Shown here: piece by piece, positions 6,008 through 39,010 of the stretch
Layout of the letters: each line of letters starts with the position of its first letter
How positions within the stretch are numbered: the first letter of the stretch is position 1
Notes under the pieces: generated by a model
Seen by the model: only the letters and a program-made list of their open reading frames with translations
What the model was told of the DNA's origin: nothing
The model's database searches: none
Position numbers and translations under genes: made by a program
Origin: Candidatus Poribacteria bacterium
GTDB lineage: Bacteria > Poribacteria > WGA-4E > WGA-3G
Direction of reading: 5' to 3'
Assembly (NCBI GenBank): GCA_965215265.1
Contig: OZ244048.1
Location: 3,296,001 to 3,360,000 of the forward strand
Length of the DNA stretch: 64,000 nt

Positions 6008-6182
6008 ATTTTTCATATTTTGGTATATGGCCTACTGTACGTCTTCTTCGCGTGAATGGCTTGACTTTCATCTCGTCAGGGGTAGTTTTGCTGATAGATA
6101 ATCGTCAAAACGTCTTTCGTGAGTGGCCGTCGGCTGTTTGATACCGAGCAAGCCTAAAAAAAAGACTGAGAGAAATAAAAGA

Positions 6183-8072: not shown

Positions 8073-8094
8073 TAAATTATTTAGGTACATATTA

Positions 8095-9609: not shown

Positions 9610-9620
9610 GGAGGTAAACC

Positions 9621-10397: not shown

Positions 10398-10400
10398 ACA

Positions 10401-21958: not shown

Positions 21959-22618
21959 ATGGAAACACAAACAGGTAGCGCCAGCGAGTCTGAACGGCGA
22001 ATTGACAAAAGTACCTTGATCTGGGTGGCGCTAGGCATCATCATCGTAGGTGTCGCCGGCTTCAATCTGTGGGCTGTGCTCGGTAAAAAACCGGTGCCAA
22101 CATCTCAGCTTGCCCCGGCTCCTGTACCGGACTTTACCTTAATCAACCAGCTGGGGCAGCCATTAGGGCTGGAAGAGCTGATAGGCAAAATTTGGGTTGC
22201 TGATTTCATTTTTACACATTGTCCAACAATTTGCCCAATGATGACACAAGAAATGGCACGTCTGCAATCTGAATTTGTAGACAAACCTATCTACTTCGTC
22301 TCTTTCTCTGTAGATGCTGAGCGGGATAGCCCGGAGGTCCTTTCTCGGTACGCAGCGCAATACGGTGCAGACGCGAGACGGTGGTATTTCCTTACGGGCG
22401 AAAGGGAGAGAATTTACGAGTTAGCAAAGAAAGGCTTTAAATTAGCCGCCGGACATCGAGGGAGTGAAATTCTACATAGTACGCGGTTTGTTCTGGTTGG
22501 CCGAGATGGGAACATCTATGGCCGATATGATAGTCGCAGTAAACCGGCGCTTTCGCGTCTCCGGCGTGACATCAACCTCCTTCTTGGGGGCTCGTTCTCG
22601 CCCACTGTGAATCAATGA
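21959..22618 (+). CDS. SCO family copper chaperone
   Basis: FIFTHCPTICP, distal HS, N-terminal anchor. Confidence 0.92.
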   Translation: METQTGSASESERRIDKSTLIWVALGIIIVGVAGFNLWAVLGKKPVPTSQLAPAPVPDFTLINQLGQPLGLEELIGKIWVADFIFTHCPTICPMMTQEMARLQSEFVDKPIYFVSFSVDAERDSPEVLSRYAAQYGADARRWYFLTGERERIYELAKKGFKLAAGHRGSEILHSTRFVLVGRDGNIYGRYDSRSKPALSRLRRDINLLLGGSFSPTVNQ

Positions 22619-22881
22619 TAAATAACTTGCCTCCTGGGTTGATTTCCTGCGTAATCTTTTTGATTCACGTCCCTTTTGGTTTTTTGCGCGTCAGATATAA
22701 AAAATTCAGTCGTCCTTGGGGCCGATGCCTCTACATTCCGATTATGCTGAATATCATTGCCCGGCGGTTTATCCTTAACTGGGATTGGAAAACTGCCATA
22801 GTTTACTTATGGACGGCAACTCTATTAGCCCATATCATCGCGGGGTATTGGGGTTCGCAACGTAAATCCGATGGCACGTAG
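22615..22881 (+). CDS. Small membrane protein
   Basis: ATGA overlap with the SCO stop; hydrophobic; PFG...KFSRPW pattern. Confidence 0.6.
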   Translation: MINNLPPGLISCVIFLIHVPFGFLRVRYKKFSRPWGRCLYIPIMLNIIARRFILNWDWKTAIVYLWTATLLAHIIAGYWGSQRKSDGT

Positions 22882-22936
22882 AAGATCCGATGAGATTTTT
22901 CGACAACATCCCTTTGATGCGAAGCAAGGACTAAAA

Positions 22937-24835
22937 ATGCTTAAGAAAATTTATGTTCCTGTTGATAATTCTGACTACTCAGACGCAAGTATCGCCTTAG
23001 GCGTTGAATTCGCAAGGAAATTTGGTTCTCACCTTGTGGGTTCGCACGTCTATGCAGCGAAAATGCATGACGTGCGCTTTAAACAGATGGAATATACCCT
23101 ACCTGAAGAGTACCAAGACGAGGTTGAACTAGAAAAGCAACGGCGTATCCACGATACTCTCATCACTATGGGGCTGCAACTCATTTCTGATTCATACCTT
23201 GAGGTGATGAAGCAGAAATGCGAACAGTTTAACATCCCCTTTGAAGCGAAGATGCCGGAAGGGAAGCATTTCATCAAATTGGTGGAAGATATTCACCAGA
23301 GTGACTACGATCTGGTTATTATGGGTGCACTGGGAATGGGAGCGGTGAAGGATAGTCTGATAGGGGGTGTTTGTGAACGTGTTGTCCGACGGACCAGAAC
23401 GGATACATTGATTGTCCGGAATCTTGAACCTGTCGAAGAGCAAACCGGCAACATCCTCGTCGGCATTGACGGGAGTCCCGAATCTTTCGCTGGATTAAAA
23501 ACCGCTATCAAACTCGGACAAGCGTTTAATAAACAGGTCGAAGCTGTTGGTGTTTATGATCCTTACTTACACTACATTGTTTTCAATTCGGTTGTTAATG
23601 TCCTAACCGAACGTGCGGCTAGAACCTTCAGATTTAAAGAACAAGAGCAATTACATGAAGAAGTCATTGATACGGGCTTAGCAAAAATTTATCAGTCTCA
23701 CCTTGAAGTTGCACGCGCAATCGCTAAAGAAGAGCACGATTACACGCTAAAAATCACCTTGCTTGATGGAAAGGCCTACGAAAAGATTCTGCAATACATC
23801 CGTAAAACAGATACCTGGCTCCTTGTCCTCGGTAGGATCGGTGTCCACAGCGAGCAAGATATGGACATTGGCAGTAACACCGAGAATTTATTACGTCTCG
23901 TGCCCTGTAACGTTCTACTCTCAAGCGAACGTTACTTTCCACAGATTGATATCAAGGCGGAAGAGACGCTTGTCTGGACGCAAGAGGCGTTAGATAGAAT
24001 GGAAAAAGCGCCGCCCCTCGTACGGGGTATTGCCAAAACAGCGGTGCATCGGTTTGCAATTGAGCGCGGGCATTCTGTGATTACGGAGAGTGTCATAGAC
24101 AAAGCGATGGAGGCGATTATGCCGCAACGTGCCTCTGAAAAGTTGACGCGTGTCGCCAAAGAAATTGCAGAACAGCAGGTTTTAGAGTCGGATGCCGTGC
24201 GTACCTATATCTGTGGTGAGTGCGGTTATGCAGCACACAATCAACAACCGATCAAGTGCCCTGTCTGCAGTGCTTCTCCTGAGCGTTTTCAAATGGTTGA
24301 CAAAAGTTCGCTTGAGCATATCGCCGTTGACGAAGGGGGGGCTGCTGAAGAGGAGACGTTTGATGGTGTGCGCCTGAAATGGTCTGAAGAGTCTAAAAAA
24401 GCGCTGCGGCGTGTGCCGCGCGGCTATATGCGGCGGAACGTTAAGGCACGCATTGAGAAATCTGCACGTTCACAAAAAATCGGTACCATCACGAACGCCT
24501 TCGCAACACAGATTATTGATGAAAATATGGGCGAAGCAGCCGCTGTTAGAGAAGACGCACCTGAGCTTCGGGCAGTCGGTGCAACAGCACGCACACAATC
24601 CGAATCCAGCGTTGAGAATTTTGAAAGTCCTCTCGAATGGACAGAGGCAGCAGTTGAACGATTGAATTTAGTACCCGCCGGTTTTATGCGAAATATTACC
24701 AAAACTCGTATTGAACAGCGAGCACAAGAAACAGAGATTGAACAAGTAACGCTTGACTTCGCCGCACGTGTCATTGAAGATGGACGCAGCCTCGCTAATG
24801 AAATCCTCGGACAGTATTATCAACAACCCAGTTAA
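22937..24835 (+). CDS. Tandem universal stress protein fused to PCP_red, rubredoxin-like, PCP_red and PCP_red modules
   Basis: Two USP domains (IYVPVDNS...MGALGMG; ILVGIDGS...LGRIG...GSNTE); CGECGY...CPVC; three W-x2-[ED]/A...P...R...IT modules. Confidence 0.85.
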   Translation: MLKKIYVPVDNSDYSDASIALGVEFARKFGSHLVGSHVYAAKMHDVRFKQMEYTLPEEYQDEVELEKQRRIHDTLITMGLQLISDSYLEVMKQKCEQFNIPFEAKMPEGKHFIKLVEDIHQSDYDLVIMGALGMGAVKDSLIGGVCERVVRRTRTDTLIVRNLEPVEEQTGNILVGIDGSPESFAGLKTAIKLGQAFNKQVEAVGVYDPYLHYIVFNSVVNVLTERAARTFRFKEQEQLHEEVIDTGLAKIYQSHLEVARAIAKEEHDYTLKITLLDGKAYEKILQYIRKTDTWLLVLGRIGVHSEQDMDIGSNTENLLRLVPCNVLLSSERYFPQIDIKAEETLVWTQEALDRMEKAPPLVRGIAKTAVHRFAIERGHSVITESVIDKAMEAIMPQRASEKLTRVAKEIAEQQVLESDAVRTYICGECGYAAHNQQPIKCPVCSASPERFQMVDKSSLEHIAVDEGGAAEEETFDGVRLKWSEESKKALRRVPRGYMRRNVKARIEKSARSQKIGTITNAFATQIIDENMGEAAAVREDAPELRAVGATARTQSESSVENFESPLEWTEAAVERLNLVPAGFMRNITKTRIEQRAQETEIEQVTLDFAARVIEDGRSLANEILGQYYQQPS

Positions 24836-24909
24836 GAATAAACTCTAACAGAGACGTTCAGAGCCGCAATGGGGATTGCTACAGCACATCTCAAAACAGA
24901 AGGTAAATT

Positions 24910-25338
24910 ATGAACGGGTATCCGACGGTCACTATCCACATTCTAGGGCCGAACGAAGGGATAGCAGAAGGCAAAAATAAGGGCTTATGGTTTAAGCTAA
25001 GATCAGAGCCGCCACCGACAAAAGACCTTGTCGTAGGCTTGAAGGTCCAGTCGTCTAACGGAGAGGTTAAACAGTTCAACACAATCGTAATCCCTAAACA
25101 TGAAACCTATTCCGCTGATCTTTTTTACAAAACAGTGGAAGGGCACACCGACGTATGGCTGGAAATAGAACCGGTTGCTTCGCTTTCCGCAATAGAGTTG
25201 CCTACTGTTACAAATGAAGGCTACGTTATAGAGGCGAGGCATGAGTTTTCAGAGTACAGCATAGGAGACTTATCGAAAATAGTTCCTTACCAGTGGAATG
25301 GACCCGAGAGAGGGCTATGGACAGATGAAAAACTTTAA
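24910..25338 (+). CDS. Hypothetical protein (beta-rich)
   Basis: 142-aa ORF with an AAGGT RBS filling the intergenic gap; no recognised motif. Confidence 0.55.
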   Translation: MNGYPTVTIHILGPNEGIAEGKNKGLWFKLRSEPPPTKDLVVGLKVQSSNGEVKQFNTIVIPKHETYSADLFYKTVEGHTDVWLEIEPVASLSAIELPTVTNEGYVIEARHEFSEYSIGDLSKIVPYQWNGPERGLWTDEKL

Positions 25339-25405
25339 ACTTGGGTAGCAACGTATACGGCTAAATCCTCCGCTCAATGTGATTCACTAAAAAAACGGAG
25401 TTTTC

Positions 25406-26689
25406 ATGATGCAAAAACAGATTTTAAGAAACACCTTAATTCTCTTATTCTTGGTGCTGCCGCTAATCAGCAGCAGTTTCGCGGAAAACTGGCCCCGTTG
25501 GCGTGGACCGAGAAACGATGGTACAAGCGCCGAAACCGGTGTTCCCACCCACTGGTCCGGTACCGAGAATGTGCGCTGGCGTTTGGCTCTTCCGGGCGAA
25601 GCGGCTTCAACCCCGATCGTGTGGGGAGACCGGATTTTCCTCACGACTGCCGACGGCAGAGATGAGCTCGCACTCCTCTGTATCACGACTGAGGGCAGCA
25701 TTTTGTGGAAACAGACCTTAGGGAGCGGCAATCGCAGTATCCGGCGGGGTGAAGCCAACCTTGCAGCCCCCTCCCCGTCAACCGATGGCGAACACGTCTG
25801 GACCTTCATTGGAAACGGTAACCTCGCGTGCCATGACGTGGAAGGAAACCGGGTCTGGGAAATAAACCTACAGGAACGTTACGGCACTTTTAACCTCTAC
25901 TTTGTTATGTCGACCTCCCCGCTGCTGGACAGAGACAGGCTATACATCCAACTTATTCACAGCAACGCGTGGCTGGTGCTGGCCTTGGACAAAGCAAACG
26001 GTTCAGAGATCTGGAGGCATGAACGTCAAAGCGATGCGACCTCTGAATGCGAACAAGCTTATACCTCGCCGGTTCTCTACCGTGACGCTGAGCGTGAATT
26101 TCTGGTTGTTCATGGTGCGGACTACGTTACCGCCCATAGTCTTGAAGATGGTAGTGAAATATGGCGCTGCGGCGGGCTAAATCCGGTTTCGAGTTATAAC
26201 TATTCACTCCGTTTTGTGGCTTCCCCGGTCGTAAGGGATGGGCTTATTGTGGTTCCTTCTGCAAAAAACGGTCCTGTTTTAGGCATTGATCCGGCGGCAC
26301 AGGATAAGGACATAACCGATAGCAGATGGCAACTCTGGAAGCTTTCAAAAGGTACGCCGGACGTTCCTTCTCCACTCATCCACGACGGCTTAGTCTATCT
26401 GTGCCGGGAAAACGGTGACCTGCTATGCATTGATGCCAAAACAGGTGAGCAGCTTTACCGTGAACGTACTCATCGGCATAGACATCGTGCGTCGCCGGTT
26501 TACGCAAACGGTTTTATCTATCTAACCGCCCGCGATGGCGTGGTCAGCGTCGTCAAAGCAGGGCGTGAATTTGAATTAGTTGCAACCAATTCGATAGGCG
26601 AAGAGGTTGCCGCTTCGCCTGTTGTCGCGAATGGTACACTCTACCTCCGCAGCTACGACGCGCTCTATGCTATCGGGGTGAAAAAGTGA
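25406..26689 (+). CDS. PQQ-binding-like / BamB-like beta-propeller protein
   Basis: Signal peptide, ENWPRWRGP, repeated SP...G...W blades. Confidence 0.9.
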   Translation: MMQKQILRNTLILLFLVLPLISSSFAENWPRWRGPRNDGTSAETGVPTHWSGTENVRWRLALPGEAASTPIVWGDRIFLTTADGRDELALLCITTEGSILWKQTLGSGNRSIRRGEANLAAPSPSTDGEHVWTFIGNGNLACHDVEGNRVWEINLQERYGTFNLYFVMSTSPLLDRDRLYIQLIHSNAWLVLALDKANGSEIWRHERQSDATSECEQAYTSPVLYRDAEREFLVVHGADYVTAHSLEDGSEIWRCGGLNPVSSYNYSLRFVASPVVRDGLIVVPSAKNGPVLGIDPAAQDKDITDSRWQLWKLSKGTPDVPSPLIHDGLVYLCRENGDLLCIDAKTGEQLYRERTHRHRHRASPVYANGFIYLTARDGVVSVVKAGREFELVATNSIGEEVAASPVVANGTLYLRSYDALYAIGVKK

Positions 26690-27561
26690 AAAGTTACAAG
26701 GAACTACCGGGTGATGCGGGGTCCAACATTGTGGGGCAAGTTAGCGCCCAACACGCCCGTCTTCGAAAGCGGCTCGGCACGGTAAAACATACCGTCGCTG
26801 TTATGAGTGGAAAAGGTGGTGTTGGTAAAAGTGCTGTCACGGCAAATCTGGCGAATGCACTCGCATTACTAGGGCTTTCTATTGGTGTCGTGGATGCGGA
26901 TATCAACGGTCCCACACTAGCGAAAATGATGGGTGTGCGACATGCGGCAGTCAATGCGACAACTAACGGGGTTAAACCTGCGATTAACACGCTCGGTGTC
27001 AAAGTCATCTCAATGGATTTACTGCTCGCTGAAGACGATGCGCCTGTGTTGTGGCATGCTCCTACTCAGAAAGATGCATTCACATGGCGCAGCACAATGG
27101 AAGTAGGCGCGCTGCGAGAATTCATCGCTGACACCGAGTGGGGAACGCTTGATTACCTTCTCCTCGATCTTCCCCCAGGAACCGATAGGCTCCCCAATGT
27201 CGTAGAGCTTATACCGGACCTCGGTGGTGTCATCGTTGTAACGATACCCTCTGATATTTCGCAATTCATCGTAAAAAAATCGGTGACAATGGCACATAAC
27301 ATCCTCAACGTTCCTATTATCGATATTGTGCAAAATATGACAGTTTATGTGTGTCAGCACTGTGGTAAACAAGAGCCGCTCTTTGCAACAGATCACCCGA
27401 TCAGCAAGGAGGGCCCGCTGAGTCAGATACCGTTTGACCCGGATCTCTCACGTTGTAGTGATAAAGGTACACCTTATGTGCATCAATACCCAGAACGTCC
27501 CGCGAGCAAAGCATTCACCGGGGTTGCCGAAAAACTTCAACGTTTCTTTAAAAAGGAGTAA
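26686..27561 (+). CDS. mrp: Mrp/NBP35 (ApbC) family P-loop ATPase
   Basis: SGKGGVGKS, DADINGP, WGTLDYLLLDLPPGT, QNM...CQHC. Confidence 0.92.
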   Translation: MKSYKELPGDAGSNIVGQVSAQHARLRKRLGTVKHTVAVMSGKGGVGKSAVTANLANALALLGLSIGVVDADINGPTLAKMMGVRHAAVNATTNGVKPAINTLGVKVISMDLLLAEDDAPVLWHAPTQKDAFTWRSTMEVGALREFIADTEWGTLDYLLLDLPPGTDRLPNVVELIPDLGGVIVVTIPSDISQFIVKKSVTMAHNILNVPIIDIVQNMTVYVCQHCGKQEPLFATDHPISKEGPLSQIPFDPDLSRCSDKGTPYVHQYPERPASKAFTGVAEKLQRFFKKE

Positions 27562-27564
27562 AAA

Positions 27565-28092
27565 TTGAAATTCTTATGCCGCGAATGCGATACCGCCATG
27601 AAATTTAAAGAGGTCATGCGCCCGGAGCAAGGATCTGTGACTGCAGTTTTTGAGTGCCCCGACTGTTTCACTGAGATTGCTATGTTTCTCAATCCTTGGG
27701 AGACGCAGATGCTCAAATCCTTGGATGTACAATTAGGTGGGAGCAACGAATCGGCGCAGCCGATGCAGATGATCCGGTCTCAACTTGAAACTGCGAAGCG
27801 TGAACCGATGCCTAATCCGGTTCCTATGGAAATAAGTTCAGGAGAAACCGCTGAGGGCGGCAGATGTCCCTTCACCTCCGTGATTTCGGAGGCTTTTGAG
27901 GAAGCACCTAAACCCGAACCGACAGCTCCCACTTGGTCAACTGAAGCCTTAGAACGGCTAGAAAGGATTCCGAGTTTCGTGCGCCCCATGGCAAAGATGG
28001 GTATTGAAAGTTTCGCAAAAGAGAATGGGCACACTGAAATTACGGCAGAAGTTATGGATGCTGCACGTGGAAATTTTCCCACACAGGTCTAA
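27565..28092 (+). CDS. Zn-ribbon protein with C-terminal PCP_red module
   Basis: CREC...CPDC, a CPF motif, WSTEALERLERIPSFVRPMAKMGIESFAKENGHTEITAEVMDAA; AAGGAG RBS before a TTG start. Confidence 0.82.
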   Translation: MKFLCRECDTAMKFKEVMRPEQGSVTAVFECPDCFTEIAMFLNPWETQMLKSLDVQLGGSNESAQPMQMIRSQLETAKREPMPNPVPMEISSGETAEGGRCPFTSVISEAFEEAPKPEPTAPTWSTEALERLERIPSFVRPMAKMGIESFAKENGHTEITAEVMDAARGNFPTQV

Positions 28093-28215
28093 ATTTTATA
28101 ATAGTGCAATTGTTGACGCATCCCTATGCCCTCTTTATAAGGATTTTTACCAAACGCTGGAGCATTTCGAGCGCTGGATCCGGTTGTTGATAATCTATAA
28201 AAAAAGGAAATATCC

Positions 28216-31119
28216 GTGAACCGTAATAGTGAAGATACTATCACTACCCTTTTCGTTGAAATCTTGATACCCATGAGCTCTACATGGCAAATTGATGAAC
28301 AGATAACGAAACCTTTCATCGAAAATAGGCGCAAACCGGATGCGATTGTCCGCACAATTGAAAAATATCCACTCGCAATTGAGCTCAAAATTGACTTTGC
28401 ACGCGGTGCTAATGAAACCGGGGAGCCGGAGGTGCGCAAATATTACTTGGGCAAAACGCTTGAGGCCACAACGGAACGGGTTATAAATAGCATGGCTGTC
28501 CGTATCCCTTACCGGTTTCGCACGATGCCGAGGCATGAAATTCCTCAAGAATTACAGGCCGCGACAGACATCGCGTATGTACTGCTGAATCTTGAGGAAC
28601 CACACCGATTTCCACAGGAAGGCTGGCTCCAGGGCAGCATCGCCGACATTGCAACTGCTATCCGTATCGGCGCGACACCTATTGCCAAAATTGAGAGAGC
28701 CGCAGAGGTTCTGCAGCAGGGTATCAATAGAGCAGCTGCTATCGTTCACCGTGCGATTCAACAGCGGCCACATATTGCTGAAAAGATAGGTGAACATCTC
28801 GTGCAAGAGCCCGGACAACAAGCTAACCAGATGGCGATGCTCATTATCAGTAACGCCCTCGTTTTTCAGAGCAGCCTCGCACGCAAGCCTGATATGGAAG
28901 CTGTTCCATCCCTCAGTGAACTCACTGCAAGCTACGGAAAACTCGATTCAGACGTGATCTTGCAGGCCTGGCGAGAAATCCAAAGGGTGAACTACGCACC
29001 AATTTTCGACGTTGCCTACAAGCTTGTTGAGACGCTTGCCGCAGACGATCAATTGGTGGGTGAGGTGCTGAGCGTGCTACGAGACACTTCACGCGAATTG
29101 GAGATGATGGGACTTGCCCAGGAACATGAACTTGCTGGCATCGTTTTCCAGCGACTTATCGCCGACCGGAAGATTCTCAAAGCCAACTACACCCGCCCAG
29201 AGTCCTCTGCCTTGCTTTGTGCCCTTGTGCTACCTGAATTGAACAGAGATGCTAAGAAATTGAAAATTGCAGATTTTGCATGTGGTACGGGCACTCTCCT
29301 CAACGGTGTTTATCAACGGCTCCTCATGCTCCACGAGCAGGCGGGGGGTAGCGGTGAAGATATCCATCAATACATGATGGAGCGGAATCTCGTGGGCTGT
29401 GATGTTCTGCCTAACGCCGCGCACCTCACAGCGGCGATTATCGCCAGTACTTATCCTGATGCGAAAATCGGCACCACACGCATCCACACTATGCCGTACG
29501 GTACGCGCCGCGCAGATGGGCTCTACGGTATCGGCGTGCTGAATCTCCTCAGCGATCCGGAAGGGACGCTTCCGTTGCATCTGGGCACAGCCGAAACTAC
29601 CACAGGACACGGCACCAGAACCACAAGTATGCAGCAAGCCTTCCGACATGGCGAATTCGACATCGTTATCCAGAATCCACCGTATACCCGAAGCGGTGCC
29701 GATGGCAACTCCAATATGCCCAAAAGTGTTTTTGGTGATAAACAGGTAGCGGCCGCCATGCGCGAAACCTTACGTGCGCAGCAGCCTCGGCTCACTGGCA
29801 ATAATACCGGGCTCGGTGCCTATTTTGTTGATCTTGCCGACAAGATGCTGAAACGCAACGGTAAGATGGCGTTTGTCCTTCCGCTAACCGTCATAACCGG
29901 AAATAGTTGGTACAAGGTACGAAATTTGTGGGCAGAGGAGTACCGCGATCTTGTTGTCATCACGATTGCCCATGAAAACATTGAGGAGTGCACGTTTTCA
30001 GCGGATACTGCCCTGGCAGAGTGCCTCGTTGTTGCAACAAAAGGGAAAGGAGAAACCACGGGCCGAGGAACGTTCGTTTGTCTCAAGCGCTGCCCTCACG
30101 GTGAGTTGGAAGCACTCGAAATAGCCAAGCAAATTCATGAACTGAAGTGTATCCGAAGCCTTGAAGATAATCTACTCACCGGGGGCTCCCCTCTCAAGGT
30201 AGGCGATGAGATTGTAGGACAGGTCATGATGGCATCCCTTTGCGGAAGTAACGCAGGCTGGTCCATCTCACGTGTTAAAGAGATGGCTGTTGTGCAATCG
30301 GCTTACCATCTTGCGAATCAAATAGTACGGCTCCCCCAACAAACCGAAGATATTCGACTTCCTCTACTTCCTGTATCAGAAATCGCAACGTTAGGCATTG
30401 GCACTAAGGATATCATCGGGGGTGGGGGTAGAGGGGCTTTTGACGCTGAAGATGGTTGTTCGGATACCGCAATTTATCCATGTCTGTGGCATTTAGACTC
30501 AAGTCGAGACGGACAGCGGGCAATGGTTGTGCCCCCAAATGCGCATGCACGGCCCCGCCCGAATTCGGTTGAAAAGGTGGAGAAAATAATGCAGTTAAAC
30601 AGTAGGGTTCATTACAACATGGAATTACAGTTTAATGCCAATGCGTTAGGAATAATGTTTACGGAACAGCCCTCTATTGGCGTAAATAAACTCCCGAATG
30701 TTGTCTTTAAGGATAGATGCCACGAATATGCGTGGACGCTGTGGGGCAATTCAACGTTTGGTTTGCTCTGTCACTGGTATCAAAGCAGCAAGCAACAACA
30801 AGGCAGAGGGATCCTGAGTCGTGCCACTTTCAATTCTATGCCCACCCTGGATGTTCGTAAACTCTCTGCTGAGGCCTTAGCGAATGCGGAACAGATTTTC
30901 AATGAACTGAAGCATCAGAGAATGTTACCGTTTAATGAGATGGATGCGGATCCGGTGCGTCACGAGCTCGATCGGTTGTTATTATCCAGGGTCCTCGGCA
31001 TTACCGAGGCGGAACGTCCGGATGTGCATGAGGGGCTCGCGCTGCTACGGAAGATGCTCGTCGAAGAACCGAGCATCCATGGCGGGAAGAAGTCAAAGGT
31101 TAAGCTGGATGAATCTTAG
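28216..31119 (+). CDS. Fused endonuclease / N6-adenine DNA methyltransferase (type IIG-like restriction-modification enzyme)
   Basis: N-terminal KPDA...IELK (PD-(D/E)xK), motif I DFACGTGTLL, motif IV QNPPY, C-terminal TRD-sized region. Confidence 0.82.
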   Translation: MNRNSEDTITTLFVEILIPMSSTWQIDEQITKPFIENRRKPDAIVRTIEKYPLAIELKIDFARGANETGEPEVRKYYLGKTLEATTERVINSMAVRIPYRFRTMPRHEIPQELQAATDIAYVLLNLEEPHRFPQEGWLQGSIADIATAIRIGATPIAKIERAAEVLQQGINRAAAIVHRAIQQRPHIAEKIGEHLVQEPGQQANQMAMLIISNALVFQSSLARKPDMEAVPSLSELTASYGKLDSDVILQAWREIQRVNYAPIFDVAYKLVETLAADDQLVGEVLSVLRDTSRELEMMGLAQEHELAGIVFQRLIADRKILKANYTRPESSALLCALVLPELNRDAKKLKIADFACGTGTLLNGVYQRLLMLHEQAGGSGEDIHQYMMERNLVGCDVLPNAAHLTAAIIASTYPDAKIGTTRIHTMPYGTRRADGLYGIGVLNLLSDPEGTLPLHLGTAETTTGHGTRTTSMQQAFRHGEFDIVIQNPPYTRSGADGNSNMPKSVFGDKQVAAAMRETLRAQQPRLTGNNTGLGAYFVDLADKMLKRNGKMAFVLPLTVITGNSWYKVRNLWAEEYRDLVVITIAHENIEECTFSADTALAECLVVATKGKGETTGRGTFVCLKRCPHGELEALEIAKQIHELKCIRSLEDNLLTGGSPLKVGDEIVGQVMMASLCGSNAGWSISRVKEMAVVQSAYHLANQIVRLPQQTEDIRLPLLPVSEIATLGIGTKDIIGGGGRGAFDAEDGCSDTAIYPCLWHLDSSRDGQRAMVVPPNAHARPRPNSVEKVEKIMQLNSRVHYNMELQFNANALGIMFTEQPSIGVNKLPNVVFKDRCHEYAWTLWGNSTFGLLCHWYQSSKQQQGRGILSRATFNSMPTLDVRKLSAEALANAEQIFNELKHQRMLPFNEMDADPVRHELDRLLLSRVLGITEAERPDVHEGLALLRKMLVEEPSIHGGKKSKVKLDES

Positions 31120-31156
31120 TGCTGCGACGTGTTATATTTGAGGTAATGATATGCGG

Positions 31157-31186
31157 TTGACATCTTTTTATTTGATGTGTTATCAT
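31157..31186 (+). promoter_or_regulatory. Putative sigma70 promoter
   Basis: TTGACA-18 nt-TATCAT upstream of 31228. Confidence 0.5.
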
Positions 31187-31227
31187 TTTTTTATAGGAAT
31201 TGCATCCACAAAAAGAGGTACGGACAG

Positions 31228-31686
31228 ATGCGCGCAATTGTTGAACTATTTATCCGCACCATCCACCTTATAGCCGCAATAATTTGGTTCGGGGGTGTTG
31301 TCTTTTCTACTTTGATTGCGACACCGATCGTGCAGAAAAATTTATCGACACAAAATGTGTTAGCAATTCACAACCGGTTCCGTGGTCTAATTCGGTTTAC
31401 GATTCATATCCTGTTGATTACTGGGGCGATGGTCTTCTTTATTGTAGCGTGGAACAATAACATGCGTTTTGATGCGACTTATATGGTGTTCTTTGTCGCC
31501 AAGCTTGCTGCGTTCGGATTGATGACGCTGTTTTGGGGGTTACACGCTTCACTCTATCGGCGGCAGCTTGAGGGAGTGCTGCCCGGTGGAAAAACAGATT
31601 ATCCGAGACCTATCAACTTATTGAGGGGTTTGACCTTAATTTCTGGCGGAATTGTCTTCGCGCTTTCGTTATATTTGAGAAACTAA
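31228..31686 (+). CDS. Four-TM CopD/HemJ-like membrane protein
   Basis: IHLIAAIIWFGG and VAKL; TAATG coupling to the radical SAM gene. Confidence 0.65.
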   Translation: MRAIVELFIRTIHLIAAIIWFGGVVFSTLIATPIVQKNLSTQNVLAIHNRFRGLIRFTIHILLITGAMVFFIVAWNNNMRFDATYMVFFVAKLAAFGLMTLFWGLHASLYRRQLEGVLPGGKTDYPRPINLLRGLTLISGGIVFALSLYLRN

Positions 31687-32990
31687 TGGAACATCCAAAA
31701 ATTCAGGCGGTTTCATGGAATATTACCCGTCTGTGCAATCTGAAATGTACCCACTGCTATCTGCCTGCGGGGTTTGTGGACACAAATGAGTTCCCGCGGG
31801 GCTATTCCCGGGATGGTGAATTAAGTCAATCAGACTGTTTTCGGGTTATTGATGAGATAGCGGATATTAATCCGAACATTCTTCTGATTCTGACTGGTGG
31901 CGAGCCGTTGCTTCGGCCAGATATTTTGAAAATATCGAAGTATGCCTCTGACACCGGATTTCTCGTTGTGATGGGTACAAACGGTGTTTTACTCAACGAT
32001 AAAATTGTGGAGGAGATGCAGCGGCACGGTGTAACAGGTGCCGGGCTGAGTTTAGACTCTATCCAGCCAACGAACCATGACCGGTTTAGAGGGATGAAGG
32101 GTGCGTGGGATGCGACGATGGAAGGCGTTGAAGCACTCAAGCGTGCCAATCTTGATTTTCTTGTACAAACCTCTGTGACACAGTGGAATTACGACGAAAT
32201 CCCAGAGATTGTTGAATTCGCCTATCAGCTCGGGGCAAAGGTGCTGAACCTCTATTTTCTGGTACGAACCGGACGAGGTAAGACAGTGATGGATATTACC
32301 GCCTCGCAATATGAGAAGATGCTTGAGACGCTTTTTAGGTTGCAGGCGGCGTATAGCGGCAAAATGCTCATTGCAGCGAAATGCGCGCCGCACTATAAAC
32401 GCGTCATCTATGAACAACAATCCGATTCTGCTTTCCTGCAAGGTTACCCGAGCGGCACCTGTCCGTGCGGTATCTACTATTGCCGCATCACACCAGAGGG
32501 TGAATTGACGCCGTGTCCGTATCTACCGGTCAGCGTTGGGAATCTCAAGACAGAGAGTTTTGTCGAGCTATGGAACGAATCGGAGACTTTCCAGAATTTA
32601 CGCAATCGGGAGTTGCTTGAAGGGAAGTGCGGTGTTTGTGAATTCAGAGAGGTATGTGGTGGTTGCCGTGCGCGTGCTTACGCTACCACAGGCAATTATC
32701 TCGCAGCGGATGAATCGTGTGAATATCAACCGGGGCAGCGAGCGGCGCAGCCCGTTCAATTTGAGAAGCGGGCTGCTTTCGGAACAGAGCCCGGCTACGA
32801 TTTGCAGTGGAACGACGCAGCACAGAAACGTTTGAAGCGTGTGCCTTCATTCGCCCGCGGCATGGTGATCAAAAGCGTTGAAAGATATGCACGTGAACAT
32901 GGTTATCAGGAAATAACGCCTGAACTCATGCAAGCTGTGAAAAAACGTTTTGATAAGACCGGCATCCCGTCGTTTAGACCGCGGCGCTAA
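31686..32990 (+). CDS. Radical SAM/SPASM enzyme, AhbD/NirJ-like, with C-terminal PCP_red module
   Basis: WNITRLCNLKCTHCY, LTGGEPLLRPD, SPASM cysteines (CPCG, CPY, CGVC, CGGCRARAY), tail WNDAAQKRLKRVPSFARGMV...ITPELM. Confidence 0.88.
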   Translation: MEHPKIQAVSWNITRLCNLKCTHCYLPAGFVDTNEFPRGYSRDGELSQSDCFRVIDEIADINPNILLILTGGEPLLRPDILKISKYASDTGFLVVMGTNGVLLNDKIVEEMQRHGVTGAGLSLDSIQPTNHDRFRGMKGAWDATMEGVEALKRANLDFLVQTSVTQWNYDEIPEIVEFAYQLGAKVLNLYFLVRTGRGKTVMDITASQYEKMLETLFRLQAAYSGKMLIAAKCAPHYKRVIYEQQSDSAFLQGYPSGTCPCGIYYCRITPEGELTPCPYLPVSVGNLKTESFVELWNESETFQNLRNRELLEGKCGVCEFREVCGGCRARAYATTGNYLAADESCEYQPGQRAAQPVQFEKRAAFGTEPGYDLQWNDAAQKRLKRVPSFARGMVIKSVERYAREHGYQEITPELMQAVKKRFDKTGIPSFRPRR

Positions 32991-33021
32991 TATGTCAGCA
33001 GCTCTTCAAGAGGAGATTCAC

Positions 33022-33741
33022 ATGCTAAGCACAGAACAGGTGAAATTTTTTCAGGAAAATGGATACCTCATTCTTGAAAATTTCATCGATTCAGATATAA
33101 TTGAGGGTTGGAGGGCACAAATCTGGGAGCATTTAAATTCGAATTTGGAGTCCCCGGGTACATGGCCCAAGGATTATGTGGTTCAAAACTTTAGTTTCTC
33201 ACCGGTGTTTGGGCAGGTGCCTGTGATGCAAAAGATTACCGCGCAGCTCGGTGGCGGCGAGTTTAGCGGTGGCGGTGGCTCGCCTTTAGTGAAATGGCCT
33301 AGCGCGGATGAGAGCTGGACAATGCCCCCTGCTGGGCATATCGATGCTTATGGCTCGGCCGGCTGGAGTCCGTTTATGCTAGGGGCGACGACTTACCTCT
33401 ACGATGTGAAACCCGGCGGTGGTGCTTTTATCTATTGGCCCGGGAGCCACAACACCACGCACAAGTATTTCCTTGAATACCCAGAACAGATCGATGGCAG
33501 TTTCACAGAGATTGAGGGATGGGACTGGAATGTCCTTTCGGATTTATCACCGGGGGGGCCGCGCGAGTTTACCGGTGCTGCGGGCGATGTTGTGCTATGG
33601 CATGCTTTTCTCTGCCATACTGGCTCAGTCAACGTCAGGGAAATCCCCCGTTTTGGGGTTTTTGCCCGCTACTCTCATAAACGCCGGGAACAGATTAAAT
33701 ATGAAATACCGGAGGATCTCTGGAAATATTGGAGCGTTTAG
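33022..33741 (+). CDS. Phytanoyl-CoA dioxygenase (PhyH) family protein
   Basis: LSTEQVKFFQENGYL, HID, WPGSH, AGDVVLWH...H. Confidence 0.88.
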   Translation: MLSTEQVKFFQENGYLILENFIDSDIIEGWRAQIWEHLNSNLESPGTWPKDYVVQNFSFSPVFGQVPVMQKITAQLGGGEFSGGGGSPLVKWPSADESWTMPPAGHIDAYGSAGWSPFMLGATTYLYDVKPGGGAFIYWPGSHNTTHKYFLEYPEQIDGSFTEIEGWDWNVLSDLSPGGPREFTGAAGDVVLWHAFLCHTGSVNVREIPRFGVFARYSHKRREQIKYEIPEDLWKYWSV

Positions 33742-33774
33742 CTACTTCCATAAGACGGCTAAAAGGAGGAAAAG

Positions 33775-34194
33775 ATGAGCGAACAGCGTCACGTTCAGGA
33801 ACAGATCTATGAGATAGAGGCACGTTTGAGCCGTGTTGAAAGTCTACTTGTCAGCATCAATGAGAAACTAGAACAAAACCCGTCGGCTTTTTCCACGGAA
33901 GTGGATATCGAACAGGCGGAAGCATTCAGGCAGTGGGTAACTGATTACGTTTCTATGCGTTTACAACAATTGGTGCCTGAGACATGCGATCATCCTATGG
34001 AGAATCCTACACAGGAAGGTCCTTTCCTTGATAATACTACAATTCCTTGTACAGAGGAAGTCGTGCATCGCGTCAAACGCATTCCGATTCCGTTTGTGCG
34101 CGAGATGGTTGTGCAGCGCGTCGCAGAAAATGCACGCCAAGCACAAATTGAAAGGGTTGATATCGATTTCTTTGAGCAAGCTGCCACGTTCTGA
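33775..34194 (+). CDS. Coiled-coil protein with C-terminal degenerate PCP_red-like module
   Basis: AAGGAGG RBS; N-terminal heptad repeat; CTEEVVHRVKRIPIPFVREMVVQRVAENARQAQIERVDIDFFEQA. Confidence 0.7.
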   Translation: MSEQRHVQEQIYEIEARLSRVESLLVSINEKLEQNPSAFSTEVDIEQAEAFRQWVTDYVSMRLQQLVPETCDHPMENPTQEGPFLDNTTIPCTEEVVHRVKRIPIPFVREMVVQRVAENARQAQIERVDIDFFEQAATF

Positions 34195-34350: not shown

Positions 34351-34728
34351 TTGAGTATGGAGTGGGTGTTTACTACCTTCTCAGAGTACCTTGAGAATGA
34401 CTTCAAAAAGCGTGTTGGAACCCCGAATCCGACAGTGGCTGATTTGTGGCAGGCCTTTGAGGTGCTTTTCCCCGCAACCACCGCACGCTTGTTAGTGCAA
34501 GAACCCGTTGGCAACACCGTCCGGTTTAAACCGCTCGCTTTTTACCATGCTGACGAGATGGGCCCCTTAATTGAAACGCCATTAGAGTACCTTAAGCAGA
34601 ATTTCGGCGGCGGCAAATTCAAAATTAACTTCTATCACGGCATGCAGTTTATCGCCACGATTAATTTTAAACCCGAAGGTCCCGAAATTTGGCGAGATTT
34701 ACCCGAATTGGAGGAAAACGAAAACTGA
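34351..34728 (+). CDS. Hypothetical protein
   Basis: 125-aa ORF with AAGGA RBS, coupled (TGATG) to the next gene. Confidence 0.7.
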   Translation: MSMEWVFTTFSEYLENDFKKRVGTPNPTVADLWQAFEVLFPATTARLLVQEPVGNTVRFKPLAFYHADEMGPLIETPLEYLKQNFGGGKFKINFYHGMQFIATINFKPEGPEIWRDLPELEENEN

Positions 34729-35201
34729 TGAGTGAGCAACAGACTTCACGTGCTCCGTCTGCAAGCAGTCTGGTATATCAAAAATGCCCTGGGTGTGGAA
34801 GCACAAGCATACACCGTCTTGCAGAAAATTCATGGTTCTGCCTTGATTGTGACTGGGATACCCTCTCGGCTATACCCACCTCTACTAATGATAGCTTGCT
34901 TGCTTCGCTGCGTTACGGCGATGTCCACGCGCGCCGAATTGCAGCGCAAGCCTTGATTAATATCGGCGATACTGAAAGGCATCTCGCTGCCGATACAGAT
35001 GCTGAGGTGCTTCTTGAGGTTCTTGATGATGATGATGCAGATGTTCGTTACTTCGTTGCTGTGGCACTCGGAAAACTTAAAGCCAGCAGTGGTCTTAAGA
35101 AACTGAGGCAGCTCGTGAAAAATGATACCTCTGCGCTCGTACGAGAGGGTGCACGCGCCGCTATTGAACAAATCGAATCGTGCGGCAAGGAGGCATCTTA
35201 A
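34728..35201 (+). CDS. Zn-ribbon plus HEAT/PBS-lyase repeat protein
   Basis: CPGC...CLDC; RRIAAQALINIG, DVRYFVAVALGKL, VREGARAAI repeats. Confidence 0.8.
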   Translation: MSEQQTSRAPSASSLVYQKCPGCGSTSIHRLAENSWFCLDCDWDTLSAIPTSTNDSLLASLRYGDVHARRIAAQALINIGDTERHLAADTDAEVLLEVLDDDDADVRYFVAVALGKLKASSGLKKLRQLVKNDTSALVREGARAAIEQIESCGKEAS

Positions 35202-36408: not shown

Positions 36409-38763
36409 CTAGGGTTTCTCACGGTTTTCCCGCCACAAAATTTGTGTGCCGTTAATATCGATTGCGAGGGTATAATTATCCTGCAGGTATTGTGCAATGA
36501 GAGGGTGCCGCTCCTCCACAGGAATTCCGTCAACAGCATCAAACCACCCACCTGTTTTGAAGAGAACCAACCGTGTCCTATCTCGTGTGAGTGCCGAGAT
36601 AACCTCTCGCTGCATTTTCGGTGTTGATGCATACGAGGCTTGATGAAATCGGGTAACGCTTGGCCGGTTGGCGAAGAAGTAATACGAACCTTGACTCGTA
36701 AAGTCAAAAATCTTTTCGTTTGGGGCAGTGTGTTCCTGAATGTACGCTACCACCTTTTGAATCTGCTCAACCTGATTGTCCGGAATGTCAACGCCGCCTG
36801 CACGCACCAATTCCTCTGGTACGACCCGTTGTGTAAACGGATTCTGACGTAATCGCTGCCATTTCTCACTAAATGAAACGAGAGGCCGGTGTACTGCACC
36901 TACATATTGGAAGAATAGCCATAAAGGAATCAAAACCCAAGCGGTTTTTAATACAGCGCGCCATCGCGTGCGCTCCGTTAGAAAACCCCACACCGTTCTT
37001 AGTGAGAGAGAAATACCTGCAAACGACCGGCATACCATGCTAAAGACACCTCGGTCAAGTGGCAAAAGACAGAGGAGCCATAAAAACGTGGAACCGTAGA
37101 TGAGATGTCCGCCATCTGACCTACCGAGTGCAGTACGGAAAAACGCTATTCCACCTAATAACAGCAGCAGCAGTTTCATGACGCTTTCTGAAGTCCATAA
37201 CGCCTGACGAAGCCCCCGGTATGTCAGGTAGGCTGCTATTACAAGGAAAACACCAATGGGCAGGTACCATCGAAAACCTTCGCTAAGAAGGAAAGTTCGC
37301 CATCCGTCCGTTGTTAGTGTAGCAAGGGTCGTCGAGAGTGAAGGAAAAGCTAAGCCCCAGGTTGCGAGTTGGTAGTGGCACTGGATGTAAGTATTCCACA
37401 ACACATCATCTAAAGCGCCGTGCGATAGAAAATAGATGCCTAACGGGAGAAAGCCTAACAGAACCCCGCAAACGTAACTGATTAGCGGTAAAGGAGACAG
37501 CCGCAGTGAAATCCGGCTTTGTAAACTGTACATCAGCAAAAAGAGTGCGATGCTTCCGAGCGAGTAGAGCCCTATTTCAGTGCTATACCAGAATGCCAAA
37601 CTCGTAAAGATGCCGGCGAGGATGAGTTTCCAACCGAAAATGAAGGAATGAGTAACCCACTGCTGTCCTTCAGACGGGGCCTCAAGGGTTCTAAATCGTT
37701 TAGCTTGAGGTGATGTGAGAAAGTTCGCGACCATTGCAAAGCTAAGTAAGCCGAGGGCGTGTCTCGTAGAGACAGAAAACTCGCTGCTTGAGGCAATCAT
37801 CACAGAAATAAAGGCGGTGAGCCATCGCCCGCGGAATACTTGCAAACCGAGTAGGTAGAGCGCGACGTAACCTAGTGGTGCTAACACTGCGCCCATAGCA
37901 CGTACCCCCTCCAACGTCGGTTCAAAAATTTGACTGCCAAACCATGCCAAATAGGCATTCTGAAAGAGCCCATGCTGCACGTAGATATCACGGAACGGGA
38001 TTCCCCCGCGTAGCATTTCGTTGAGAGGCGCGAGACGTTCCCCTTCATGGAACAGGTCAATGTTGCCATCAATGTTCCCTGAATACATCAGTAAGTACAT
38101 AAAAATTGGGAAAATAACGTACTCAAATCCGAGTCTGCCGACCTGTCTAAAAACCGGAGTTTTCGCATGGGAGGTAGAACCGACCGTCTGGCTATTCGGT
38201 GTAGTTTCTATAGGCCGTTCGGTAAGGGTATTAGTATTTTGTAAGGTCGGTAGAAATCGATTGTATAGCAGTCCTAATTTGACAAAAGTCGATAATCCGA
38301 GTGGGAAAAAGAGAAAGACGAGGCCTCTTGGCCCTACAGCGTCAAGATGGAAGAGCTGTAACCAACAGAGCCACAACGGGAGTGAGCCCAAGGCGTTCGC
38401 TTTAAGTACGTGCTGCACCGGTTGTGCGGTCAGTTTTGCAGCCCAGTGTGAATAGAATTGCCAGCCGAACCAGTACAAACATATTACCGTAGGGATACCG
38501 AGCAGAGCCAACAAGTAGTAAAAGAATTCTTGTTGCTTAGGATACTGGTTGACGCTAATCCAACCTACTACGTCTGAGGTGTGGTGGTATGTAAAGGTAA
38601 GATATTTTTGAAGTGCTAATCCTACGCCGATTGCGAGAGAAAATGCGGATACCGTGATGAGCCCTGCGTAAAGACGAAGTTCCGCGGCTTGAACAACACC
38701 CGGGTCAGGGAGGAAACGCTTTTTTCGAATGAGACTCTGTATCGTTGTGTCTTGTTGTTGCAT
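36409..38763 (-). CDS. Large polytopic membrane protein, possibly GT-C fold
   Basis: Many TM segments, DLFHEG...PFRD...HG loop, C-terminal YIQEHT...YYFFANR domain. Confidence 0.65.
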   Translation of the reverse strand: MQQQDTTIQSLIRKKRFLPDPGVVQAAELRLYAGLITVSAFSLAIGVGLALQKYLTFTYHHTSDVVGWISVNQYPKQQEFFYYLLALLGIPTVICLYWFGWQFYSHWAAKLTAQPVQHVLKANALGSLPLWLCWLQLFHLDAVGPRGLVFLFFPLGLSTFVKLGLLYNRFLPTLQNTNTLTERPIETTPNSQTVGSTSHAKTPVFRQVGRLGFEYVIFPIFMYLLMYSGNIDGNIDLFHEGERLAPLNEMLRGGIPFRDIYVQHGLFQNAYLAWFGSQIFEPTLEGVRAMGAVLAPLGYVALYLLGLQVFRGRWLTAFISVMIASSSEFSVSTRHALGLLSFAMVANFLTSPQAKRFRTLEAPSEGQQWVTHSFIFGWKLILAGIFTSLAFWYSTEIGLYSLGSIALFLLMYSLQSRISLRLSPLPLISYVCGVLLGFLPLGIYFLSHGALDDVLWNTYIQCHYQLATWGLAFPSLSTTLATLTTDGWRTFLLSEGFRWYLPIGVFLVIAAYLTYRGLRQALWTSESVMKLLLLLLGGIAFFRTALGRSDGGHLIYGSTFLWLLCLLPLDRGVFSMVCRSFAGISLSLRTVWGFLTERTRWRAVLKTAWVLIPLWLFFQYVGAVHRPLVSFSEKWQRLRQNPFTQRVVPEELVRAGGVDIPDNQVEQIQKVVAYIQEHTAPNEKIFDFTSQGSYYFFANRPSVTRFHQASYASTPKMQREVISALTRDRTRLVLFKTGGWFDAVDGIPVEERHPLIAQYLQDNYTLAIDINGTQILWRENREKP

Positions 38764-38770
38764 ACTGTTT

Positions 38771-39010
38771 TCACTGCACAACGTCCCCTTCTACGAGTTC
38801 AACCTGGACGTTAATGTTCTTGAGATAATCAATAGCCCGTTCAATTTCGTCCGGTGGCCCCAGTATCTCCAACATCACCCAACCAGCTACCTCTGTGACA
38901 TTAGCCCGGCGGATATTGGTGACCACCTTATACTGATGTCCGAGGGTGTAGATGATGGGCTCTGTAATTTTTTCAGGTGGGAACGTCAAGCGGACCTTTA
39001 GAGAAGTCAT
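38771..39010 (-). CDS. Stand-alone NIL domain protein
   Basis: LTFP...EPIIY...TNIRRANV...GWVMLE; AGGAG RBS. Confidence 0.85.
   Translation of the reverse strand: MTSLKVRLTFPPEKITEPIIYTLGHQYKVVTNIRRANVTEVAGWVMLEILGPPDEIERAIDYLKNINVQVELVEGDVVQ

Follow-up and report, generated by a model that had tools for sequence, protein, structure and literature searches.

A PCP_red-containing gene set beside the terminal oxidase genes of a Poribacteria sponge symbiont

PCP_red modules behind a respiratory island

The genome of a sponge symbiont assigned to Candidatus Poribacteria, available as a single contig of 4,833,177 bases (4.83 Mb) with a completeness of 95%, encodes four unrelated proteins that carry the PCP_red domain (Pfam ID PF08369), which is known from the C terminus of BchB/ChlB, a subunit of the dark-operative protochlorophyllide reductase (DPOR). 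Their genes belong to a larger gene set located on contig OZ244048.1, within the 64,000-nucleotide stretch analyzed here (positions 3,296,001 to 3,360,000), which we refer to as the window and to which all coordinates below apply. The set consists of two sub-operons, unit A and unit B, with all genes co-oriented on the plus strand. It starts where a series of respiratory genes (plus strand, positions 638-22618) ends, directly 3' of them. A preliminary description of this locus had listed six PCP_red-like modules on four proteins, co-oriented and directly behind the respiratory genes, and all these points held up: the recomputed first residues of the modules (positions 23975, 24380, 24638, 27934, 32808, and 34048) agree exactly with the earlier ones, five modules exceed the Pfam cut-off, and the sixth is supported by profile comparison.

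Three of the modules (23975-24106, 24380-24502, and 24638-24760) are located in a 654-amino-acid (aa) USP fusion protein, and one each is found in a 175-aa Zn-ribbon protein (27934-28068) and a 434-aa radical SAM/SPASM enzyme (32808-32942). These five modules open with a Trp residue, whereas the one in a 139-aa coiled-coil protein has a Cys at this position (34048). Hidden Markov model searches matched PF08369 to each of the four proteins, with E-values of 1.4e-27 for the three stretches of the USP fusion, 1.1e-17 for the Zn-ribbon protein, 2.2e-16 for the radical SAM/SPASM enzyme, and 2.3e-5 for the 139-aa protein, whose score of 24.8 bits is below the gathering cut-off of 32.5 bits. A six-frame search of all 4,833,177 bases of the genome returned scores of 66.8, 64.2, 48.1, 35.4, and 34.3 bits for the five modules and 26.2 bits for the sixth. 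These six matches are the only ones in the genome, every one of them falls into this 11-kb stretch, and no BchB was detected by the same search. The sixth module aligns with the profile of the Zn-ribbon-PCP_red family (hhalign probability 92.6%, E = 4.6e-7) and represents the best conserved part of the 139-aa protein in an alignment of 12 orthologues.

Pairwise identity among the modules is 18-40%, and two subtypes can be distinguished, one comprising the first module of the USP fusion and those of the Zn-ribbon and radical SAM proteins, the other comprising the second and third modules of the USP fusion and that of the 139-aa protein. The fold was compared for one of the four carriers, the Zn-ribbon protein, in whose AlphaFold2 (AF2) model (pLDDT 82.7) the blocks of the tail reach pLDDT values of 94-97. 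The tail matches the solved PCP_red structures 2KRU (TM score 0.77, normalized by target) and 2L09 (0.70) and superimposes on ChlB in 2YNM chain D with a root mean square deviation of 1.1 Å over 49 columns, with a Foldseek probability of 1.00 in each case. The modules are true PCP_red domains.

The respiratory island upstream of the set encodes a cytochrome b, multiheme and mono-heme cytochromes c, a cytochrome bd-like subunit I (6123-8072; PF01654, 66 bits, in the N-terminal half only), an EB_dh-type cytochrome, and an ABC exporter, and continues up to 22618 with CoxII, CoxI, CtaA, CtaB, two CoxIII plus CoxIV, and then SCO; all six modules lie 3' of this oxidase cluster. The segment from 6123 to 12131 (plus strand), in which the bd-like subunit I is followed by c-type cytochromes and a cytochrome with an EB_dh domain, resembles the “bd-like oxidase” clusters discussed for Nitrospira.

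Organization of units A and B

Gene order was compared in two samples. One consists of 20 stretches from 16 relatives, compared with the window proteins; the other comprises 80 loci centered on the Zn-ribbon gene, the best 80 of 554 relatives, all from Poribacteria. Unit A follows the Cox and SCO genes and runs TM88, USP fusion with three PCP_red modules, (142-aa protein), PQQ-type propeller, Mrp, and Zn-ribbon-PCP_red protein. TM88 (22615..22881) is a small membrane protein of 88 aa, located between SCO and the USP fusion, that has no match in Pfam or NCBIfam and is syntenic in 13 of the 16 relatives and in 67 of the 80 Poribacteria loci. The gene for the USP fusion (22871..24835) comes after SCO-TM88 in every case in both samples, and its product displays the Pfam architecture USP-USP-PCP_red-rubredoxin-like knuckle-PCP_red-PCP_red (Usp, PF00582, E = 1.3e-32, 113.7 bits in 2 stretches; RUBY_RBDX, E = 2.2e-5). 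The ATP motif GxxGx9G[ST] is found only in the second USP domain (at residue 321), through which the protein combines the PF00582 match and the motif that mark ATP-binding USPs; the first domain has a G at the last place of the motif. The 142-aa protein (24910..25338), again without Pfam or NCBIfam match, is encoded in 55 of the 80 Poribacteria loci, and the PQQ_2/BamB-like β-propeller (25406..26689; PF13360, E = 2e-24), a predicted secreted protein with an N-terminal hydrophobic leader, in 76 of them.

The propeller gene overlaps by 4 bases with the gene for a 291-aa Mrp/NBP35-type P-loop ATPase (26686..27561; PF10609, E = 1.3e-67). The Mrp assignment made in the preliminary description is borne out by the PF10609 score (228.3 bits versus a cut-off of 27.1) and by a deviant Walker A motif, SGKGGVGKS, which, like the CxxC motif expected for a bridging cluster, is invariant in 14 of 14 aligned sequences. 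The genome encodes a housekeeping Mrp elsewhere, with which this protein shares 38% identity; by sequence, the cluster Mrp is a second, dedicated paralogue. It resembles the Mrp/ApbC/Nbp35 Fe-S carriers in the deviant Walker A motif, the CxxC motif, and the PF10609 match, and differs from them in its fixed place beside the Zn-ribbon-PCP_red gene; it also scores below the cut-offs of the MrpORP and ApbC equivalogs (218.4 versus 450 and 159.6 versus 348 bits, respectively).

The Zn-ribbon-PCP_red gene (27565..28092) starts after a gap of 3 bases and encodes a Zn ribbon, a conserved Cys-Pro-Phe motif, and the PCP_red module. In an alignment of 40 full-length members of this family, C5, C8, C31, C34, Glu46, W124, A128, and P136 are invariant, and P102 is nearly so; a subset of 10 rows shows no variation in the Cys-Pro-Phe motif that precedes the module. 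The N-terminal half of the protein resembled the zinc ribbon of NrdR only weakly (E = 0.013-0.07), and this similarity was disregarded.

In unit B, the order is CopD/HemJ-like protein, radical SAM-PCP_red enzyme, (PhyH dioxygenase), 139-aa PCP_red protein, h125, Zn-ribbon-HEAT protein, (GFO oxidoreductase), so that the conserved gene set extends to about position 35201, beyond the region covered by the preliminary description. The CopD/HemJ-like polytopic membrane protein (31177..31686; 169 aa as listed) stays under all family cut-offs (PF05425, 27.8 versus 32.1; PF03653, UPF0093, 23.4 versus 34.2; NCBIfam CopD, 33.8 versus 195 bits). Its gene abuts the radical SAM gene and is found directly 5' of it in all 16 relatives. 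An 11/12 match to a sigma-70-like promoter is present at 31157-31186; counts of such sites in this region do not exceed those in shuffled sequences.

The radical SAM/SPASM enzyme with the C-terminal PCP_red module (31686..32990) matches the Pfam domains Radical_SAM (E = 5.2e-25) and SPASM (E = 1.2e-8). It contains the CxxxCxxC motif (Cys17, Cys21, and Cys24) and nine cysteines in the SPASM region (Cys259, 261, 266, 277, 315, 318, 324, 327, and 345). The best family match, across the whole catalytic region, is to the AhbD and NirJ2 coproheme decarboxylases, with 318.3 bits for AhbD (TIGR04545; 318.9 bits in the six-frame search; model positions 2-339 of 339) and 305 bits for NirJ2 (TIGR04055), each below the respective cut-off of 500 bits; NirJ, NirJ1, and AhbC match less well. 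Apart from these scores, it differs from AhbD and NirJ2 by its PCP_red tail, by the CopD/HemJ-like gene that always precedes it, and by the lack of an AhbC- or NirJ-like second member in the genome. In the six-frame search, it was the sole AhbD/NirJ-family protein (the next match had 49.9 bits); hence there is no AhbC, and the siroheme route is incomplete.

Among the remaining genes of unit B, the one for a PhyH-type Fe(II)/2-oxoglutarate dioxygenase-like protein (32950..33741; PF05721, E = 3.6e-8) was found, in the 16 relatives, in loci of the window's own family (f1) and in none from families f2 and f3. The 139-aa coiled-coil protein (33775..34194) carries its degenerate PCP_red tail at 34054-34182; its residues Cys71, His73, Cys92, and His98 are invariant in the 12 orthologues and may form a metal site, with Cys92 standing where the other PCP_red modules open with Trp. 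The next gene (34351..34728) encodes h125, a 125-aa member of a conserved family without a Pfam model, which is 78-92% identical across the order and has homologues with 43-55% identity under the names NC10, Rokubacteria, and Methylomirabilota. It shows the motifs VQEP..T.RFK and GGGKFK.N..G..F..T.NFK, and its AF2 model (pLDDT 93.9) had no fold match in the PDB at E ≤ 0.001 (best E = 0.041, TM score 0.38). The Zn-ribbon and HEAT-repeat protein (34689..35201; 170 aa; HEAT_2, E = 3.2e-10) is encoded after h125 in 14 of the 16 relatives. Just 3' of the set is the gene for a 790-aa polytopic membrane protein (36409-38781, minus strand) without Pfam match.

Conservation and distribution of the gene set

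Of the 79 Poribacteria loci that could be assessed, 78 have an Mrp gene that ends within 400 nucleotides (nt) 5' of the Zn-ribbon gene. In three loci (L006, L007, and L008, from genomes G028, G037, and G040 of one f2 genus), about 0.9-1.0 kb separates the Mrp gene from the Zn-ribbon gene; elsewhere, the two adjoin. Units A and B are no more than 10 kb apart in 30 of 75 assessable loci; in the others, unit B has a different genomic location, for example hundreds of kilobases away in G006, G012, G016, G020, and G022. Two genomes (G002 and G007) keep the USP gene at the oxidase island and have the Mrp and Zn-ribbon genes moved to unit B.

Joint occurrence was assessed in 41 genomes of the order, the window's own genome included. 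PF08369 is present in 36 of these, with six matches each time, and these 36 also encode h125, the bd-like oxidase subunit, and an Mrp closely orthologous to that of the cluster (59-80% identity), so that the co-occurrence of the set with the bd-like oxidase, as expected from the preliminary description, is indeed seen across the order. The housekeeping Mrp (36-41% identity to the cluster Mrp) is present in all 41 genomes. The same five genomes, all of family f4 and 80-96% complete, lack every one of these (PF08369, the Mrp paralogue, h125, and the bd-like oxidase) and still have a haem-copper oxidase subunit I with only 48-50% identity. This joint absence ties the set to this particular oxidase island and not to aerobic respiration in general.

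In the window, units A and B are separated by a gene for a 967-aa Eco57I/N6-adenine-type DNA methyltransferase (28216-31119, plus strand) with weak matches to MADS and BREX methylases. It has no counterpart between units A and B in the 16 relatives and so represents an insertion. The gene is also found in contigs of other samples; in one run (X7), a different stretch of 712 letters, perhaps a swapped target-recognition part, replaces positions 30123-30843.

Looking beyond the phylum, we found the Zn-ribbon-PCP_red family to be large: a search of 50%-identity clusters gave 789 representatives with E ≤ 0.001, 332 of them with E ≤ 1e-10. A metagenome scan seeded with distant members of this family yielded 80 loci. 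One of these, L127 (G+C content 0.445), encodes homologues with 45-58% identity of nearly all of the set: an EB_dh cytochrome, a radical SAM-SPASM-PCP_red enzyme, a USP-USP-PCP_red-rubredoxin-like-PCP_red x2 protein, Mrp, and a Zn-ribbon-PCP_red protein. The radical SAM-SPASM-PCP_red gene of L127 appears as two overlapping open reading frames (972-1325 and 1294-2151), due to a frameshift or an assembly error. Mrp is also encoded 5' of the Zn-ribbon gene in L152 and L158, and a partial Mrp gene is present at the contig edge in L157 and L172; in L157, the genes after the Mrp/Zn-ribbon pair encode homologues of both cytochromes flanking the bd-like oxidase in the window. The 75 loci without Mrp come mostly from a single high-GC soil clade (median G+C content 0.69, branch support 100/96) and are therefore not independent observations. 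In this clade, the Zn-ribbon-PCP_red gene occurs alone, often beside a gene for a D-Ala-D-Ala carboxypeptidase-like protein. These loci do show that the pairing with Mrp can be lost.

The other architectures recur as well. A USP protein with 3-6 PCP_red modules was the arrangement in 9 of 10 long relatives scanned, and USP-PCP_red fusions in methanogens are remarked upon in the accessible text of PMC12159084. Clusters of radical SAM-SPASM-PCP_red proteins in the ESM Atlas come most commonly from Nitrospinota, Methylomirabilota, Pseudomonadota, and Acidobacteriota; Limnocylindrales and Binatia are among the source names, and “AdoMet-dependent heme synthase” appears as a JGI name in one case. 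One apparent fusion of the radical SAM tail with Mrp (P0522) was rejected as such: it starts inside the SPASM region and contains a low-complexity linker and seemingly out-of-frame stretches. Judging from the sequence, we take it as a radical SAM-PCP_red gene and a directly following Mrp gene that were run together. Literature searches found no published description of the gene set, whose members might be listed in supplementary tables (e.g., those of PMC8115632).

Relation to DPOR and possible functions

The modules share with BchB/ChlB and with the stand-alone PCP_red proteins solved by nuclear magnetic resonance (2KRU and 2L09, the latter being Asr4154) membership in the same Pfam family, in five cases out of the six, and a superposable fold. 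They differ in their hosts, which are USP, Zn-ribbon, radical SAM, and coiled-coil proteins here and have no nitrogenase-like body: matches to the BchB/ChlB models TIGR01278 and NF002789 are confined to the last ~55-64 residues, with 40-52 versus 490-509 bits. The genome encodes no BchB and contains no PF08369 match apart from these six (no search for BchN was made). In BchB (chain 8vqi_B), the PCP_red stretch corresponds by alignment to residues ~484-534. A C-terminal helix of BchB has been described as covering the cavity (Nomata et al., PMC4071322), and the accessible text of a 2025 cryo-electron microscopy study (PMC12022308) places the helix that contacts protochlorophyllide in trans at residues 398-420. 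PCP_red is C-terminal of this capping helix, and the idea that the domain acts as a lid over protochlorophyllide was rejected for this reason.

The cluster Mrp is comparable to BchL of DPOR and to NifH, which acts on NifDK (both being SIMIBI ATPases that dock on a client and carry a bridging cluster), in its ATPase class and, in the case of the BchL-BchB pair, in having a PCP_red-bearing partner; this is a likeness of working principle only, as Mrp falls outside the family, with ~16-17 bits for the BchL and NifH models. The predicted complex of two Mrp copies (alignment of 11 sequences) with the whole Zn-ribbon protein (alignment of 40) scored 0.44, 0.49, and 0.50 in separate runs (median 0.49), compared with 0.00 for the best of three controls, with a contact agreement of at least 75% and a partner pLDDT of at least 62. 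In calibration, 58 of 80 solved complexes and 2 of 110 mismatched pairs attained the mark applied to such complexes; among those that did, only 7 of the solved complexes had a score of 0.60 or less, as had both of the mismatches. The prediction thus lends weak support to an Mrp/Zn-ribbon protein complex.

As for the tetrapyrrole background, the genes for HemE, ferrochelatase (hemH), and a HemY-type oxidase form one cluster in the genome, and HemW is encoded too. A chlorite-dismutase-family protein matches HemQ weakly (48.8 bits versus a cut-off of 235), a HemN-like protein scores 196 bits versus a cut-off of 325, and HemF was not found in this 95%-complete genome. None of the candidates for the last step of heme b synthesis reaches its family cut-off; in relative terms, the AhbD-like enzyme comes closest. 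In a 2026 review (PMC13564367, accessible text), AhbD is described in organisms of the coproporphyrin pathway that are devoid of further AHB enzymes, where it offers an alternative to ChdC that does not depend on oxygen, and a role of this kind would fit the radical SAM enzyme of the set.

These data make us lean, with slightly less than an even chance of being right, toward the explanation that the set is a conserved heme/Fe-S accessory module of the Poribacteria oxidase island, in which PCP_red serves as a shared handle. The respiratory island that it would serve comprises the bd-like oxidase, the aa3 oxidase, the heme O and heme A synthases, and SCO. Its catalytic core would be the AhbD-type radical SAM/SPASM enzyme, which, working beside the CopD/HemJ-like membrane protein, would most likely perform an oxygen-independent side-chain reaction on an iron tetrapyrrole, that is, the step that turns coproheme into heme b or a related one. 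The dedicated Mrp and its fixed Zn-ribbon-PCP_red partner would service the iron-sulfur clusters of the set, the three-helix PCP_red module on four proteins would act as the common handle that brings them into one assembly, by binding either a partner protein or a tetrapyrrole, and the USP domains would provide nucleotide-dependent control. From the genomic context, a role in maturation of the oxidases, or in redox sensing for them, is plausible.

Several observations weigh against such an accessory module. The case for it is built from sequence, synteny, and predicted structure. The AhbD equivalog cut-off is not reached (318 of 500 bits), so the substrate may differ, and given the other weak candidates for the last heme step in the genome, the enzyme may not be needed for bulk heme b. 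The f4 genomes keep a haem-copper oxidase, so not all such oxidases depend on the set, and since the five genomes that lack the set belong to one family, they amount to one evolutionary event rather than a statistic. On long contigs of the soil clade, there are no other members of the set within 10 kb, and Mrp is found 5' of the Zn-ribbon gene in only 3 of the 48 metagenome loci with at least 900 nt upstream, so the pairing with Mrp is not universal. The score of the Mrp complex falls in a band that is more often wrong than right unless the complex is likely beforehand. Finally, with the capping helix outside PCP_red, DPOR gives no direct support for tetrapyrrole binding by this domain.

The preliminary description had viewed PCP_red as a shared tag on which the Mrp dimer docks, in the manner of BchL on BchB, and which recruits it to several clients. 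Taken strictly, this proposal would have Mrp recruited in turn to the USP fusion, the Zn-ribbon protein, the radical SAM enzyme, and the coiled-coil protein to deliver Fe-S clusters or ATP-coupled electrons. Points in its favor are the presence and absence of the Mrp paralogue together with PCP_red in the 41 genomes, the Mrp gene being next to the Zn-ribbon gene in 78 of 79 loci from Poribacteria as well as in L127, L152, L158, and, in part, L157 and L172, the contig in which a radical SAM-PCP_red gene and a directly following Mrp gene are read as one frame, and the complex prediction with its weak support (0.49 versus 0.00). However, that prediction covers one of the four clients, as a whole protein rather than a single module, and the predicted contact could be made through the Zn ribbon instead; Mrp is upstream in only 3 of 48 assessable soil-clade loci; and cyanobacteria have stand-alone PCP_red proteins (2L09). 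On the supporting side, BchL touches only BchB in the cryo-electron microscopy states of DPOR, but the accessible text names no residues, and thus no BchB tail residue, at the BchL interface (PMC12022308). On balance, we consider a docking function unlikely as the explanation of the whole set. In a broader version of the same analogy, to which we assign a still smaller likelihood, PCP_red would be an ancient docking module for SIMIBI-class iron-sulfur ATPases, in DPOR as in this set, and the Mrp paralogue would act like an Fe protein, as an ATP-dependent donor of low-potential electrons (or clusters) to the radical SAM heme enzyme; to our knowledge, electron transfer by Mrp proteins is not established. 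If true, this would mean an ATP-driven activator of radical SAM chemistry for oxidase cofactor maturation in an aerobe.

Alternatively, PCP_red could be a tetrapyrrole-binding or capping module, with the multi-module proteins acting as chaperones that pick up the heme or coproheme made by the radical SAM enzyme and bring it to CtaB, CtaA, and the oxidases. The only characterized protein to host PCP_red is a tetrapyrrole enzyme; in the present set, which has ctaA and ctaB as neighbors, the domain forms a fusion with an AhbD-like enzyme; and tandem arrays of 3-6 modules on USP scaffolds recur in 9 of 10 long relatives. The Zn-ribbon family also has a conserved Cys-Pro-Phe motif before the module, which may resemble heme-regulatory Cys-Pro motifs. 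Yet the helix that contacts protochlorophyllide (BchB 398-420) is outside the PCP_red stretch, no His, Met, or Cys residue is conserved inside the module, and 2KRU and 2L09 are listed in their database entries as proteins only, which leaves this possibility with about the same low probability as the docking tag. Least likely of all, in our estimate, is a purely regulatory set, in which the USP-PCP_red protein and its partners would sense the energy or oxygen state and tune the expression or activity of the oxidases without any cofactor synthesis. A pair of USP domains, of which one retains the ATP motif intact, would suit a sensor, as would the USP gene staying at the oxidase island after the departure of the Mrp and Zn-ribbon genes in G002 and G007; in Nitrospira marina, USP proteins, with or without PCP_red, that are encoded next to electron-transport operons rise under low oxygen according to the accessible text of PMC8115632. 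A set of this kind would, however, leave a radical SAM/SPASM enzyme with intact catalytic motifs and a dedicated Fe-S carrier unexplained, and Pfam and NCBIfam scans of the window proteins found no DNA-binding or signaling output domain.

The heme/Fe-S accessory module that we tentatively prefer bears on a part of respiratory biology about which little is known, namely, the supply and insertion of heme for unusual terminal oxidases, including the uncharacterized bd-like oxidases of nitrite oxidizers and sponge symbionts. Specific candidates for this process that the set provides are the AhbD-like enzyme, which carries a partner domain of its own, the Fe-S carrier ATPase dedicated to the set, and small proteins belonging to a family of which the sole characterized relative is the tail of a chlorophyll enzyme. 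What PCP_red binds, whether this is another protein or a tetrapyrrole, would at the same time account for a stretch of DPOR.

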